NCBI GenBank assembly: GCA_963734455.1
Contig: CAVTHC010000004.1
Span: forward strand, 1,852-65,851
DNA: 64,000 nucleotides
From: Terriglobia bacterium
GTDB lineage: Bacteria > Acidobacteriota > Terriglobia > Terriglobales > Acidobacteriaceae
Direction: 5' to 3'
The notes beneath the pieces were generated by a model. That model had not been told where the DNA came from, did not search any database, and worked only from the letters and a program-made list of their open reading frames with translations. A program made the translations under genes and the position numbers. Positions 25,799 through 31,885 of the stretch are shown here, piece by piece; positions within the stretch are counted from its first letter, which is position 1; each line of letters opens with the position of its first letter.

Positions 25799-26494
25799 CT
25801 ACGGTTTCGTGACAACGGACATGGGCCGACTCAGCAGAAAGCCCCTGATGAGCGCGCTATTTATCTGCAAGCCCCCGTTGTACTGAACGAAACCCTTCTG
25901 CTTGAACGCACTCATGAATTTACTGACCCGGGCGCGGGTGGTTCCTACCATCTCCGCCAGGGTTGACTGGCTGACCTTCAAGGCGTGCTCCGGCTTTGAT
26001 TCCTTGATGATTTCTCCAAACAGCAACAAGACTCGTGCCAGCCGCTTTTCGCTGAAATTGAAGAATTGATCCATCAAGTCTTCCTCGACTCGAATGACGC
26101 GGGAAAGCAGATAGGTTACAAACAGCGCCGCGAACCGGGGGTCTCGCTTGAGGGTGCGGACCGTGCTCTCCTTGCGCAGGCGGGCGATACTGGAAGGCCC
26201 GATGGATCGCGCCGTGTACATACGCAGAGATTGCCCTCCCAGGCAGCCTTCGCCAAAAAAGCTACCGCGCAGGAGGACGGCGACTATAGCTTTTTTGCGA
26301 CGCGTCGAAGCCACCGTGAGCTTCACCGTGCCGCTCTGGATGTAGAACACTGCATCGGCCGCATCCCCTTGCGAAAAAACGACCTCGTTGTCCCGGTAGT
26401 TCCGCGCAGTCATGCCGGCACCGAACTTTTTGCGGAAATCTGCGGAACTGAAACCGAGAGCTTGCTTCGCCATCTGTCTCCTGGGCACGATCAA
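25799..26494 (-). CDS. Crp/Fnr-family transcriptional regulator
   Basis: N-terminal cNMP-binding-type beta-roll (VVFSQGDAADAVFYIQSGTVKLTV...FFGEGCL) and C-terminal HTH (SQSTLAEMVGTTRARVSKFMSAFKQKGFV). Confidence 0.85.
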   Translation of the reverse strand: MIVPRRQMAKQALGFSSADFRKKFGAGMTARNYRDNEVVFSQGDAADAVFYIQSGTVKLTVASTRRKKAIVAVLLRGSFFGEGCLGGQSLRMYTARSIGPSSIARLRKESTVRTLKRDPRFAALFVTYLLSRVIRVEEDLMDQFFNFSEKRLARVLLLFGEIIKESKPEHALKVSQSTLAEMVGTTRARVSKFMSAFKQKGFVQYNGGLQINSALIRGFLLSRPMSVVTKP

Positions 26495-27257: not shown

Positions 27258-28647
27258 ATGGAAGCGAACGAATACGATCTGGTGGTGATCGGAAGCGGTC
27301 CGGCGGGCCAGAAAGGCGCCATCTGCGCCGCCAAGATGCGCAAGAAGGTGGCGATCATTGACCGCAAGAAGAGCGTGGGCGGGGTGTGCGTTCACACCGG
27401 CACCATCCCCAGCAAGACCCTGCGGGAAGCGGTCTTATACCTGAGCGGTTTCCGGCAACGGACTTTTTATGGCCGCGGTTATGCGCTGAAAGACCGGATC
27501 GCGATGTCGGATCTGATCTTCCGGGCGGAAGCCGTCATGGCGCGCGAAGTGGAAGTGATCAAGGCGCAGCTGCGCCGGAACTACGTGACCATCATGGAGG
27601 GCGACGCGCGCTTCCTGGATGCCAATACCCTCGAAGTCAAGAACGACGATGGCGCGCAGTTGGTTCGCGGTCAACACATCCTGATCGCCTGCGGCACGCG
27701 GCCCGCGCACAGCGCCGAGATTCCGGTCGATGGCAAACGAATTTTTGACTCCGACCAGGTGCATTGCCTGGAAGAAATCCCCCGCGACCTGATTGTCGTG
27801 GGCGCCGGCATTATCGGCCTGGAATACGCTTCGATGTTCGCGGCGCTGGGCGTAAAGGTCACGCTGCTCGACCAGCGCCCCATCCTGCTGGATTTCGTGG
27901 ACCGGGAAATTGTGGAGAGCCTGTGCTTCCAGCTGCGGCAGCTGGGAACCGTCTTTCGGCTGGGGGAAAAAGTCGTTTCCGTCGGCTTCGACGAGGAGCG
28001 CGACCGGGTGTTTGCCAAGCTGGCTAGCGGGAAGAACGTTCATGGACAGGGACTGCTCTACACCATCGGCCGGCAGGCCAACGGCGACCTGCTGAACCTG
28101 GAATCCGCCGGATTAAAGGCGGAGGGCCGGGGCAAGCTTTCCGTGAACGAACATTTTCAGACTGCCGTTCCCTCACATCTATGCCGCGGGAGACGTGATC
28201 GGATTTCCCGCGCTGGCCAGCACGTCCATGGAACAGGGCCGCCTCGCCAGTTGCCACATGTTCGGCAAGCCCGGCAAGATGCCTCCCAACCTTATTCCGT
28301 ACGGGATTTACACCATTCCGGAGATTTCGATGGTGGGGCAGACCGAAGAACAGCTCACGCACGAGAACATTAACTATGAAGTCGGCCTGGCGCGCTATGC
28401 GGAACTGGCCAAGGGACAGATGCTGGGCGATGAGCAGGGCCTGCTCAAGCTGGTCTTCGATCCCGATTCTCTGAAGCTGCTGGGAGTGCATGCCATCGGC
28501 GATCGGGCGGCGGAAATCGTGCACATCGGCCAGGTGGTCCTTACCCTGGGAGCGAGCATCGAGTATTTCCGCGATGCCGTATTCAACTATCCCACCCTGG
28601 CGGAAGCCTACAAGGTGGCGGCCCTGGATGGGTTGAACAAGCTTTAG
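27258..28647 (+). pseudogene. sthA: soluble pyridine nucleotide transhydrogenase (SthA/UdhA-type flavoprotein), frame broken by one extra nt near 28173
   Basis: N-terminal part YDLVVIGSGPAGQKGA...GGVCVHTGTIPSK in frame 0. The continuation [23 protein letters not shown]...[10 protein letters not shown] is in frame +1. 1390 nt minus 1 gives 463 codons. Confidence 0.85.
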
Positions 28648-28822: not shown

Positions 28823-30493
28823 ATGGCGAAACCCATTTTGTTGAGCGTGGATGACGACTCCGATGTGCTGCGGTCGATCGAACGCGATTTGCGTTCGAAA
28901 TACGGGGCCGAGTATCGGGTGATTGGCAGCGATTCTCCGGAAGGCGCGCTGGATCTGCTGAAACAGTTAAAGGTGCGGAATGACAGCGTCGCCCTGCTGC
29001 TGGCGGACCAGCGCATGCCGCGCATGGATGGGGTGGAGTTTCTGCAGCAGGGCATGCGGATTTTCCCCAAGGCGAAGCGGGCATTGCTGACGGCGTATGC
29101 CGACATGAATGCCGCCATCAGCGCCATCAACCAGGCGAACATCAATTATTTTTTCCTGAAGCCCTGGGACCCGCCGGCCGAGCACCTGTATCCGCAACTG
29201 GATGACCTGCTCGATGACTGGCAGGCTTCTTACCGTCCCACCTTCGAGGGCATACGCGTGCTGGGCACGCGCTGGTCGCCGCGGTCGTACGACTTGCGGG
29301 ATTTTCTGGCGCGAAACCACGTGCCCTATCAATGGATCGACGTGGAAATTTCCGCCAACGATCCGGAGACCAAGCGGCTGCTGGAGGCGCTCGGTCCGGA
29401 GTCGGCCGACCTTCCGGTCGTACTTTTCCCGGACGGAACCAAACTTCTGGAAAGCCTTCCCGCGGATGTCGCCAAGAAAGTGGGATTGCGTACCCGGGCC
29501 CAGACCGATTTTTACGACCTGGCCATCGTGGGCGGAGGGCCGGCCGGGCTGGCGGCTGCGGTCTATGGCGCGTCCGAGGGCCTGAAAACCGTGATGATCG
29601 AACGGGAAGCGCCCGGCGGACAGGCCGGGATGAGTTCGCGCATCGAGAACTATCTGGGATTTCCGGCGGGACTCAGCGGCAACGATCTGGCGCGGCGCGC
29701 GGTGGTGCAGGCCCAGCGTTTTGGCGTGGAGATACTTTCTCCGCTGGAGGTGGTCGGCGTCCGGCTTGAGGGGTCATACCGCATCATCAAGCTGGCGGAC
29801 GGAAATGAAATCTCCTGTCACGCGCTCATGATCTCGACCGGAGTGCAGTGGCGGAAACTGGAGGCGGAGGGCATCGCCCGCTTGCAGGGCGCGGGGATCT
29901 ACTACGGCGGCGGCGCCACCGAAGCGCTGTCCTGTGAAGGCGAGATTGTGTACGTGGTGGGCGGGGCGAATTCCGCCGGCCAGGCCGCGATGAACTTCGC
30001 CAAGTACGCGGAGCGGGTCGTCATTCTGGTGCGCGGCGATTCTCTGGCCAGCACCATGTCGCAATATCTCATCGACCAGATCAAAGAGATGCCCAACATT
30101 CAGCTGTGGGCGCATGCCAGCGTGGTCGAGGCCCACGGCGCCACGCACCTGGAAGAAATCTCGATTCTGTGTTCGGACACCAACAAGATCGAGCGCGTTT
30201 CCGCCAGCTCGATGTTTATCTTTATCGGAGCGCTGCCGCGAACCGACTGGCTGGGTGATCTGGTCGAGCGCGACGAACGCGGTTTCATTCTGACCGGTCC
30301 CGATCTCATACGGGACGGGCAACGTCCCAAGGGCTGGACTCTTGATCGCGATCCCTTCCTGCTCGAAACCAATGTGCCCGGAATTTTTGCCGTGGGCGAT
30401 GTGCGGCATGGTTCGGTGAAGCGGGTGGCTTCGGGAGTGGGCGAAGGGTCGGTGGCGGTGCAGTTCATCCATCAGTACCTGAGCAAGGTCTAG
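28823..30493 (+). CDS. response-regulator receiver fused to a thioredoxin-reductase-like FAD/NAD(P) oxidoreductase
   Basis: Receiver (LLSVDDDSDV...LLADQRMPRMDG...LKP), a linker domain, then a TrxB-like body (IVGGGPAGLAAA; GGANSAGQAA; FAVGDVR). No CxxC anywhere in the protein. Confidence 0.85.
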   Translation: MAKPILLSVDDDSDVLRSIERDLRSKYGAEYRVIGSDSPEGALDLLKQLKVRNDSVALLLADQRMPRMDGVEFLQQGMRIFPKAKRALLTAYADMNAAISAINQANINYFFLKPWDPPAEHLYPQLDDLLDDWQASYRPTFEGIRVLGTRWSPRSYDLRDFLARNHVPYQWIDVEISANDPETKRLLEALGPESADLPVVLFPDGTKLLESLPADVAKKVGLRTRAQTDFYDLAIVGGGPAGLAAAVYGASEGLKTVMIEREAPGGQAGMSSRIENYLGFPAGLSGNDLARRAVVQAQRFGVEILSPLEVVGVRLEGSYRIIKLADGNEISCHALMISTGVQWRKLEAEGIARLQGAGIYYGGGATEALSCEGEIVYVVGGANSAGQAAMNFAKYAERVVILVRGDSLASTMSQYLIDQIKEMPNIQLWAHASVVEAHGATHLEEISILCSDTNKIERVSASSMFIFIGALPRTDWLGDLVERDERGFILTGPDLIRDGQRPKGWTLDRDPFLLETNVPGIFAVGDVRHGSVKRVASGVGEGSVAVQFIHQYLSKV

Positions 30494-30499
30494 AGGTTC

Positions 30500-31885
30500 A
30501 TGATCGAGAAATCAGAGTTATTGCGCATTCCGACGTTTGCGGGCCTGCCCGATGATCAGCTGGACTGGTTCATCAGCCAGTCCCAGGAAATCGTTCTTAA
30601 GGCGGGAGACACGTTCCTGCAGCAGGGCGCGCCCGCGGTCGCCATGTTGGTCGTTCTCGAGGGGGAACAGCAGATGCGAGGCGCGCTGGGCGGCGAGGCG
30701 GTCACGATTCCGCTGGTGCCGGGCGATATCAGCGGACTGCTGCCGTTCTCGCGCATGAAAGTGTCGGTGATGACCGGGCGGGCGGTCACGGATGGCCGCA
30801 TCCTGAAATTTCCTTCCGCGCAATTTCCGGAGTTGGTGCAGAAAATGCCGGAACTGGCCCAGCGGCTGGTGGGCCTGATGTCCGACCGGATCCGCGAAAC
30901 TACCCGGCGCGAGCAACAGCAAGACCGGCTGGCCGGCCTGGGGAAACTTTCGGCGGGGCTGGCGCATGAACTGAACAATCCGGCGTCGGCCGCCAAACGC
31001 GCCACCAGCCTGCTGCGCGAGGCGCTGCATCGCATCAAGGAATCGGTGCAGGAGTTGAGCAAGCACGATCTTACCGCCGCCCAGAAATCGGAAATCGAAA
31101 AGCTGGAAGCTTCGTTCCTGCAGCCCGACGAAACCCCGCTCGATACCCTGGCGGTCACCGATCTGGAAGACCAGATTGATTCCCTGTTGCGCAGTCATGG
31201 CCAGAACGACTTGTGGCAGCTGGCGGCCGACCTGGCGCGGCGGGGCGTCAAGCCGGAAGTGCTGGAGTCCCTGTTCGCAAGCCTCGACGCCGAGGTTGCC
31301 CGGGCCGCCCTGGTGAGAATTGCGGCTTCGGTCGAGATTGCGAACCTGCTGATCGAGATTGAAAGCAGCACGTCGCGAATTTCCGACCTGGTGCGCGCCA
31401 TCAAGGAATACACCTACATGGACCAGTCCACCGCGCAAAACGTGGACATCGTGAAAGGACTGGAAAATACTCTCACCATCATGAACCACAAGCTCAAGCG
31501 CGGGGTCACGGTGCAACGCCAGTACGAGAAACTCCCCCTCCTGGTGAATTCATACGGCAGCGAACTCAATCAGGTCTGGACCAACCTCATCGACAACGCG
31601 ATTGACGCGATGGGCGGAAAGGGCGAGCTGCGAGTTCGGACCTATCGCGATGACTCCTGCGTGGTGGTGGAGATTGGCGATAACGGACCGGGCATCTCGC
31701 CCGAGATAAAGGCGCACATCTTCGAACCATTCTTTACCACCAAGGGAGTGGGCGAGGGCACCGGGCTGGGTCTGGATACGGTCATGCGCATTGTGAAGAA
31801 GCACCGGGGCACGATCCAGGTCACTTCGAAACCCGGGGAAACGCGCTTCCAGGTTTTTCTCCCGCTGGTGGAAGCTCCAGCCTAG
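30500..31885 (+). CDS. cyclic-nucleotide-binding-domain histidine kinase
   Basis: N-terminal cNMP-binding-type domain (IPTFAGLPDDQLDWF...VLEGE), H-box LAHELNNPASAA, and ATPase domain with N, D and G boxes (WTNLIDNAIDA, IGDNGPGI, GTGLGLD). Confidence 0.85.
   Translation: MIEKSELLRIPTFAGLPDDQLDWFISQSQEIVLKAGDTFLQQGAPAVAMLVVLEGEQQMRGALGGEAVTIPLVPGDISGLLPFSRMKVSVMTGRAVTDGRILKFPSAQFPELVQKMPELAQRLVGLMSDRIRETTRREQQQDRLAGLGKLSAGLAHELNNPASAAKRATSLLREALHRIKESVQELSKHDLTAAQKSEIEKLEASFLQPDETPLDTLAVTDLEDQIDSLLRSHGQNDLWQLAADLARRGVKPEVLESLFASLDAEVARAALVRIAASVEIANLLIEIESSTSRISDLVRAIKEYTYMDQSTAQNVDIVKGLENTLTIMNHKLKRGVTVQRQYEKLPLLVNSYGSELNQVWTNLIDNAIDAMGGKGELRVRTYRDDSCVVVEIGDNGPGISPEIKAHIFEPFFTTKGVGEGTGLGLDTVMRIVKKHRGTIQVTSKPGETRFQVFLPLVEAPA

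Follow-up and report, generated by a model that had tools for sequence, protein, structure and literature searches.

A widespread two-gene signalling module in which a histidine kinase with a CRP-type sensor accompanies a response regulator that has lost the CxxC centres of its glutaredoxin-like and thioredoxin-reductase-like domains

Censuses of two-component systems list a response regulator in which a receiver (REC) domain is joined to a thioredoxin reductase (TrxR), or a 'TrxB-family' regulator (PMC5847659, PMC9739842). In the review of the Streptomyces coelicolor systems, the SCO7297 kinase and the SCO7298 regulator, assigned to family 'TrxB', are unnamed and unstudied (PMC9739842). Expression of sco7298 ('trxB3') is switched on both in response to polysulfide (PMC9952706) and after acid shock (PMC2631018). 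Outside signalling, YpdA is a TrxR-fold reductase without a redox cysteine near its flavin, for which direct reduction of a low-molecular-weight disulfide has been proposed (bioRxiv 10.1101/2020.12.02.408641). Here, we analyse a gene pair of the REC-TrxR kind in a stretch of 64,000 nucleotides, hereafter the window, from a Terriglobia bacterium of the family Acidobacteriaceae (GCA_963734455.1, contig CAVTHC010000004.1, positions 1,852 to 65,851). A first-pass annotation of this DNA had stated that no experimentally defined function was known for the architecture. This stands, as we found no functional, biochemical or genetic study of the family in the literature on REC-TrxR fusions, among NCBI product names or under ergothioneine-disulfide reductase; the architecture itself, however, is already listed in the censuses.

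The pair in the window is genuine and intact, an ordinary representative of a signalling module that is very widespread and already catalogued but functionally uncharacterised, in which both dithiol centres of a redoxin and thioredoxin reductase fusion have been replaced and which is kept next to a dedicated kinase. The two genes and the parts of the regulator are as follows.

28823..30493, + strand: response regulator gene, 556 aa, with a REC domain, a glutaredoxin (Grx)-like domain without cysteines and a TrxR-like body without CxxC (open reading frame; Pfam/NCBIfam; AlphaFold2 (AF2) model, pLDDT 90.5)
28835..29185, + strand: receiver domain, residues 5-121 (PF00072, E = 4.2e-12; Pfam Response_reg at 7-117)
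29006..29008, + strand: codon for the Asp62 of DQRMP, predicted to accept the phosphoryl group (conservation in the alignment at least 90%)
29243..29488, + strand: glutaredoxin/mycoredoxin-like domain, residues 141-222 (AF2 topology, profile match to 2lqo)
29507..30490, + strand: TrxR-like FAD/NAD(P)H body, residues 229-556 (Pyr_redox_2, E = 1.3e-32, at 231-542)
29900..29935, + strand: former active-site segment Y360-Y-G-G-G-A-T-E-A-L-S-C371, in place of C-A-T-C-D (alignments)
30500..31885, + strand: soluble histidine kinase gene, 461 aa (open reading frame; domains; AF2 model, pLDDT 85.7; Foldseek matches to class-I kinases)

The regulator ends with a TAG at 30493, followed by the six nucleotides AGGTTC and the ATG of the kinase at 30500. 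Since a 175-bp spacer separates the pair from the gene upstream and a convergent antiporter gene lies downstream, the pair forms a two-gene unit. The two open reading frames, their spacing, their domains and the missing CxxC had all been described at first pass and are confirmed by open reading frame analysis, Pfam and alignment.

The body of the regulator, in which Pfam also recognises Pyr_redox, has a thioredoxin reductase (7jyp, E = 8.6e-43) as its best match among solved structures, and the regulator scores 201.9 bits with the TrxB model TIGR01292, under the cut-off of 343.45. As annotated earlier, it keeps both dinucleotide motifs (GGGPAGLAAA at residue 237 and GGANSAGQAA at 380) and contains no CxxC anywhere: the whole protein has only three cysteines, C332, C371 and C450. 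The segment ATEALSC begins at residue 365, and HMMER alignment to the thioredoxin reductases 7jyp and 4zn0 sets G362/G363 and T366 opposite the two active-site cysteines and E367 opposite the catalytic Asp. Counting back without gaps from the GGxxSA motif likewise places T366 at the site of the second cysteine. With a G..T pair at the cysteine sites a classical dithiol thioredoxin reductase is excluded, in line with the earlier statement that the protein is not a classical disulfide reductase. A BLAST alignment that sets C371 opposite the second Cys of CATC was rejected, as it needs a 5-residue gap and both the ungapped register and HMMER give T366.

The same replacement is found throughout the family. 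Among 104 members the former active site has the consensus YYGAAxTEAxxC, and none carries a CxxC there; E367 is at least 90% conserved in an alignment of 47 sequences, and C371 is present in 80% of the 104 members, the others having Y, T, F or H at this site. Three other assemblies encode exactly the same regulator protein, and its length is shared by over 100 metagenomic relatives with 91-99% identity. Together with the count of 0/104, this means that the missing CxxC is no sequencing artefact. The same genome has a separate canonical trxB with CATC and HRRDQFRA.

The FAD motif, the NAD(P)H motif, the GD motif and the YYGAAxTEA segment are nearly invariant among the 104 members. Such constancy amounts to strong purifying selection on the former active site and agrees better with a working cofactor site than with a decayed one. 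The FAD domain also carries a family-conserved 19-residue insertion, within residues 489-515, with invariant W505, R509, P511 and E515. In a Foldseek comparison, the model of the body superimposes on Lactococcus lactis thioredoxin reductase in its flavin-reducing (FR) form (5mh4) with a TM-score of 0.93 and a root-mean-square deviation of 2.5 Å, against a TM-score of 0.64 for the flavin-oxidising (FO) form of the same enzyme (5mjk).

Six members (L015, L016, L018, L019, L022 and L080), belonging to one Acidobacteriaceae subclade and a metagenome-assembled genome (MAG) labelled Verrucomicrobia, carry the sequence CHVC around residue 327, on the strand of the FAD domain that precedes the ATG motif, where residues 332-335 of the window protein read CHAL. 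We rejected CHVC as a redox centre, as it lies in a buried beta-strand of the FAD domain and is not family-wide.

A second redox centre has been lost as well. The first-pass annotation had recognised an extra domain of about 90 aa between receiver and body and called it a linker; the domain is there, but its predicted topology and profile matches identify it as glutaredoxin/mycoredoxin-like. In the AF2 model, built from 47 sequences, residues 144-220 have the topology beta1-alpha1-beta2-alpha2-beta3-beta4-alpha3. A profile of this segment from 35 relatives matches mycoredoxin-1 of Mycobacterium tuberculosis (2lqo) over its full length with E = 2.5e-8, followed by NrdH-like thioredoxins, glutaredoxins and the N-domains of glutathione S-transferases (GSTs), and Pfam gives a weak match to GST_N_2. 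The active site at the N-terminus of helix 1 is neither CxxC nor CxxS: the CGYC of mycoredoxin-1 aligns with an S-P-x-S of the family, in the window W151-S-P-R-S155, with S152 and S155 at the cysteine sites. The cis-Pro before beta3 is retained (P198, at least 90% conserved). With S-P-x-S/T in place of CGYC, thiol-disulfide exchange by this domain is impossible; therefore, two redox centres are gone and not one.

The receiver, in turn, looks complete. The phospho-acceptor set D10-D12, D62 (in DQRMP), T90 and K113 (in KPW) is all present, each position being at least 90% conserved among family relatives, and the nearest receiver model is of the NosR/RpfG type (102.6 bits). Two divergent cases have degenerate receivers and no adjacent kinase, namely L026 (Acidobacteriota, genome G040), with Arg at the Asp62 position, and the Actinocrinis loci L261/L107, the latter with ADPDP for DDD; from their sequences these look like pseudo-receiver versions of the family.

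To follow the pair across bacteria we scanned 185,579 species genomes for relatives of the regulator and took the loci with 10-kb flanks. Full-length relatives with 49-88% identity occur in ten phyla (Acidobacteriota, Cyanobacteriota, Chloroflexota, Planctomycetota, Pseudomonadota, Bacteroidota, Gemmatimonadota, Verrucomicrobiota, Myxococcota and Actinomycetota), the last represented by Streptomyces, Nocardia, Mycobacterium and Amycolatopsis, and more than 150 clusters at 50% identity score under E = 1e-97 against the regulator. In Acidobacteriota a relative is present in 35 of 200 genomes (36 of 201 with the window's own), and the kinase adjoins the regulator, in either order, in 21 of the 23 full-length loci of that phylum, the window's included. 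Over about ten phyla, the kinase is adjacent and on the same strand at 62 of 65 assessable REC-type loci, lying downstream at 38 and upstream at 17, with only its C-terminal part aligned at the other 7. At the remaining three, it is 2.6 kb away in one case and absent in two. Bodies without a REC domain were never found beside the kinase (0/9).

The pairwise identity matrices of regulators and kinases are correlated (r = 0.88), and mean identity between phyla is 54% for the regulator and 37% for the kinase. The earlier suggestion that the two genes are wired together is thus borne out: the pair is conserved as neighbours, and this adjacency and the correlated divergence are those of a cognate two-component pair.

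Two loci of this set deserve mention on their own account. An 8-kb contig with the pair, labelled Candidatus Dormiibacterota (L034/L194), is 88% identical to the window and nested in the Terriglobales clade, and is probably a mis-binned acidobacterial contig. In a MAG labelled Burkholderiales that falls in a Bacteroidota-like clade (L221/L062), the kinase is absent and EgtB is encoded directly downstream of the regulator, in the position that the kinase usually takes.

The same body also occurs in two other settings. In one, a cyclic nucleotide monophosphate (cNMP)-type domain is fused directly to the same Grx-like and TrxR-like body, giving a protein of about 560 aa that we found in Bradyrhizobium, Methylobacterium, Sphingomonas, Nitrospirota, Myxococcota and Nitrososphaeraceae archaea; in the other, a form of about 420 aa has no sensor. 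In a tree of bodies a long branch separates the family from TrxB, and the kinase-linked REC forms make up one large group (SH-aLRT 91), with the cNMP-fused and sensor-less forms outside. Since the body is found with a fused cNMP-type domain or with no sensor at all, it is regulated rather than sensing, and on these sequence architectures we regard it as a regulated output module with one-component, two-component or unregulated wiring.

Comparison of the fused domain with the sensor of the kinase suggests, though not decisively, that the two may be specific orthologues. Aligned with hhalign, they give a probability of 99.7% at only 18% identity, and a hidden Markov model (HMM) of the kinase sensor scores fused cNMP domains at 64-92 bits, against 40-64 bits for ordinary cNMP domains of the same genome. 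As a side observation, cNMP-fused members lie on contigs of ammonia-oxidising archaea (Nitrososphaeraceae, Nitrosopolaris, Thermoproteota; L112/L118, L128 and L168) and are nested among acidobacterial ones, with 67% identity for L128 and 68% for L118/L168 (range 67-69%), which points to recent horizontal transfer or mis-binning.

The kinase itself comprises the following parts.

30527..30874, + strand: CRP/cNMP-type beta-barrel sensor, residues 10-125 (PF00027 at 32-115, 37.2 bits against a cut-off of 27.5)
30875..31060, + strand: signalling helix leading into helix 1 of the dimerisation and histidine phosphotransfer (DHp) domain, with phospho-acceptor His156 in AGLAHELNNP (H156 invariant in 26 kinases)
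31076..31282, + strand: residues 193-261, an insert of four helices at the DHp hairpin tip (model; no Pfam match)
31289..31864, + strand: second DHp helix (residues 264-309), then the catalytic ATP-binding domain, which holds the N, G1, F and G2 boxes (HATPase_c, E = 4.9e-26)

In the model the beta-barrel spans residues 29-105 and helices follow from 106 to 187, with the C-helix running on as a single helix (117-187) through His156. The expected boxes are in place (HELNNP with H156, NLIDNA at 362, DNGPGI at 394, FEPFFTTK, and GTGLGL at 420), and Foldseek matches the class-I kinases HK853, ZraS and CckA. HisKA scores 19.5 bits, under its cut-off of 26.9, because the 70-residue insert splits the DHp hairpin. 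The helices of the insert (193-207, 216-232, 236-247 and 252-261 in the model) carry the motif SD.ED.L..WL...G...W.LA, which is conserved in and specific to this kinase family, and the insert might be a docking site for the unusual output of the regulator.

Canonical cNMP domains touch the ribose and cyclic phosphate of their ligand through the sequence F-G-E...R-[ST]-A. In the kinase family this phosphate-binding cassette reads GD(I/V)(S/T)G(L/M)LP(F/Y)SRM: the Gly-Glu pair and R-[ST]-A are absent, the loop is shorter and Met instead of Ser/Thr follows the Arg. The first-pass annotation was right about the cNMP-type domain, but because of the non-canonical cassette the cyclic-nucleotide input that it had proposed is doubtful, and binding of cAMP or cGMP seems unlikely from the sequence.

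What might such a system do? Our preferred explanation, to which we give somewhat better than even chances, is a self-contained two-component system of two genes, whose regulator works as a phosphorylation-gated, thiol-independent NAD(P)H flavoenzyme with a low-molecular-weight sulfur compound as its possible substrate. The soluble class-I kinase would sense a cytoplasmic ligand through its CRP-type beta-barrel, whose C-helix leads into the His156 helix, and would phosphorylate Asp62 of its partner. The regulator has no DNA-binding domain as its output, which would be an FAD/NAD(P)H-binding module, presumably descended from a fusion of a redoxin and a thioredoxin reductase with the domain order of AhpF, in which Grx CxxC has become S-P-x-S and TrxR C-A-T-C-D has become G-x-x-T-E. 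Phosphorylation may then gate a reaction in which the reduced flavin passes a hydride or electrons directly to an acceptor bound to the protein, for which YpdA/Bdr offers a precedent, and the Grx-like domain could serve as a binding site for the substrate or a partner. The likeliest acceptor would be a low-molecular-weight sulfur compound; a substrate such as oxidised ergothioneine is weakly suggested by the neighbourhoods described below, by the Ser-type Grx-like site and by the finding that sulfane sulfur induces sco7298.

Of about 190 loci, 11 have the ergothioneine genes egtB and egtD beside the body; these show six or more different arrangements and come from Acidobacteriota, Bacteroidota and Cyanobacteriota, with REC-type and cNMP-type bodies both. 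Chance alone would give about 0.4 such loci by our own estimate, which assumes a stretch of 16 kb in a genome of 5 Mb. EgtD passes the NCBIfam cut-off in three of these loci (L035, L056 and L140) and EgtB in one (L062). Close relatives of the window regulator (78-87% identity) show the order egtB-egtD-(zf-UBP)-response regulator-histidine kinase on one strand, zf-UBP being a UBP-type zinc-finger gene (PF02148) of about 90 aa. In the genome of the window itself, egtB-egtD lie far from the pair, at C3:169614-171896, where the tblastn match to egtB consists of two overlapping parts and that to egtD is also broken in two, which may reflect frameshifts.

Several points weigh against a gated flavoenzyme with a sulfur substrate. 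For every member the proposed activity rests on sequence and model. The NADPH 2'-phosphate motif HRRxxxR is reduced to one Arg (VRGxSL): the regulator has VRGDSLAS where the genome's own TrxB has HRRDQFRA, and within this region only R404 is conserved among the 104 members, so that the nucleotide preference, and even NAD(P)H binding, is unproven. The association with egt genes concerns only about 6% of loci and is seen neither beside the window pair nor at the actinobacterial loci examined, and the sulfur link through SCO7298 rests on its listed family label, not on sequence comparison.

The main rival is a pseudo-enzyme effector, which we think unlikely. The protein would perform no catalysis, and its FAD, and possibly NAD(P)H, would have only a structural or redox-reporting role, while phosphorylation of the receiver would alter binding to a partner, such as a zf-UBP protein or a component of the thioredoxin system; the effect would come from sequestration, as with single-domain or protein-binding response regulators. 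The loss of both catalytic cysteine pairs would fit such a role, as would a model that shows one conformation, FR. Furthermore, a search with a zf-UBP sequence query found this gene directly adjoining 21 of 71 REC-type and 13 of 80 cNMP-type loci, roughly a quarter overall. In the window's own genome (C8:175350-176665; L002:1588-2816) an 86-aa zf-UBP gene follows the canonical trxB directly, 38 bp downstream on the same strand, which suggests that zf-UBP proteins interact with the TrxR fold; a second zf-UBP copy is found at C2:372081-372296. However, few parts of the protein are as conserved as its cofactor motifs and former active-site helix, a pattern unusual for a pure scaffold, and the zf-UBP neighbour is absent at most loci, including that of the window.

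A more specific form of the flavoenzyme explanation, which we offer as speculation with rather low expectations, is that the body is the NAD(P)H-dependent enzyme still missing from the redox metabolism of ergothioneine. By direct flavin chemistry it would reduce either ergothioneine disulfide or the sulfenic acid that the C-S lyase step of the biosynthesis yields, with the Ser-type Grx-like domain binding the thione and the zf-UBP protein as a partner in many lineages. If so, the REC/kinase and cNMP-fused versions would be signal-gated switches of antioxidant recycling.

Less probable still is a TrxR-like ferredoxin/flavodoxin-NAD(P)+ oxidoreductase (FNR), of the YumC or Chlorobaculum kind, under phosphorylation control, which would govern how electrons pass between NAD(P)H and small carriers of the iron-sulfur or flavin type. 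These enzymes share the TrxR fold without a CxxC and are the best-known relatives of thioredoxin reductase that lack it; the structures 6gas, 3lzw and 3ab1 are matched at E = 1e-12 to 1e-14, and in the window sthA, a gene of NAD(P)H balance, adjoins the pair. Nevertheless, true thioredoxin reductases match far better, over the whole body (E = 1e-43), whereas the matches to 6gas, 3lzw and 5xhu span only residues 229-409 and that to 3ab1, although it spans 228-552, scores no better. The family has its own long branch in the tree, the fused Grx-like domain is without counterpart in FNRs, and sthA is not a conserved neighbour. Ferredoxin or flavodoxin genes, too, were not recurrent near family loci in our general neighbour clustering, in which open reading frame cut-offs of 110-120 aa let small genes fall out.

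That the protein is an ordinary thioredoxin reductase, its CxxC lost to an assembly error or its disulfide formed by other cysteines, is barely credible in spite of the public names of the family ('thioredoxin reductase (NADPH)' and 'thioredoxin-disulfide reductase', besides 'FAD-dependent oxidoreductase'), of the frameshifted sthA nearby in the assembly and of the gapped BLAST alignment of C371: the identical sequences in other assemblies, the same motif in 104 members from about ten phyla, the low TIGR01292 score, the replacement of C371, the sole candidate cysteine, in a fifth of members and the separate canonical trxB all speak against it.

The genes next to the pair in the window are the following.

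25799-26494, - strand: Crp/Fnr-type regulator (domain scan of the window)
27258-28647: sthA (Si-specific NAD(P)+ transhydrogenase), frameshifted

The sthA gene is split into overlapping open reading frames, 27258-28373 in one frame and 28195-28647 in another, with Pyr_redox_2 on one and Pyr_redox_dim on the other; we take this to be a frameshift, caused either by an assembly error or by decay to a pseudogene. Both neighbours had been noted at first pass and are indeed present, but neither recurred near family loci in the neighbour clustering, with its cut-offs of 110-120 aa, and since they are not conserved neighbours they carry no functional weight. With the corrections given here, the first-pass interpretation holds in outline.

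We believe that the case is of interest as an open problem and not as a new discovery of the window. Of the two-component systems whose output is not transcriptional, this is one of the more widespread, and nature here presents a single output module under three kinds of wiring, with a fused sensor, with the sensor on a kinase, or unregulated. Databases call the family thioredoxin reductase, while its sequence rules out the classical mechanism. Working out its function would correct thousands of annotations, would add new chemistry or a pseudo-enzyme logic to the thioredoxin-reductase superfamily and might also close a gap in the redox biology of ergothioneine or sulfur.

Compared with known enzymes, the regulator shares with low-Mr TrxB (TIGR01292; 7jyp, 5mh4, 1f6m) the two-domain FAD/NAD(P)H fold, the GxGxxG, GxGxxA and GD motifs and about 28-30% identity, but it has G..T for the CxxC, one Arg of HRRxxxR, the 19-residue insertion and the N-terminal REC and Grx-like domains. 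AhpF (TIGR03140; 1hyu, 4o5q) likewise places an N-terminal thioredoxin-fold module before a TrxR-like body, and Foldseek aligns the two over the whole length (E ~1e-30); AhpF, however, has two thioredoxin folds with one CxxC plus the CxxC of the body, whereas the window protein has one Grx-like fold and no CxxC, and it scores 160.2 bits with the AhpF model against a cut-off of 502.9. YpdA/Bdr (TIGR04018), which is restricted to Firmicutes, resembles it as a TrxR-fold, NADPH-dependent flavoenzyme without redox-active Cys at the flavin, but is only distantly related in sequence (51 bits, with a cut-off of 339.9) and has no REC or Grx-like domain. The Grx-like domain aligns end to end with mycoredoxin-1 (2lqo), including the cis-Pro and the DG..L.NP turn, and differs from mycoredoxin-1, NrdH and glutaredoxins (2lqo, 3zit, 7c12) in having S-P-x-S/T for their CGYC; with Ser-type GST N-domains it shares a Ser at the position of the first Cys.

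Among signalling proteins, the 'TrxB-type' regulators of the censuses have the same domain combination and, for SCO7297/7298, the same regulator-kinase order, SCO7298 being matched by its listed label only; the Streptomyces, Mycobacterium and Nocardia orthologues in our locus set have 49-55% identity and an adjacent kinase. The censuses consulted list the architecture only, and not the two CxxC losses, the Grx-like domain, the CRP-type sensor or a function. Finally, the NCBI 'cyclic nucleotide-binding domain-containing thioredoxin-disulfide reductase' of Bradyrhizobium (WP_212279168) has the same body without the catalytic cysteines, with 45-47% identity over residues 144-555, but it carries its sensor fused, as a one-component protein with no kinase, where the window protein has a REC domain in that place.

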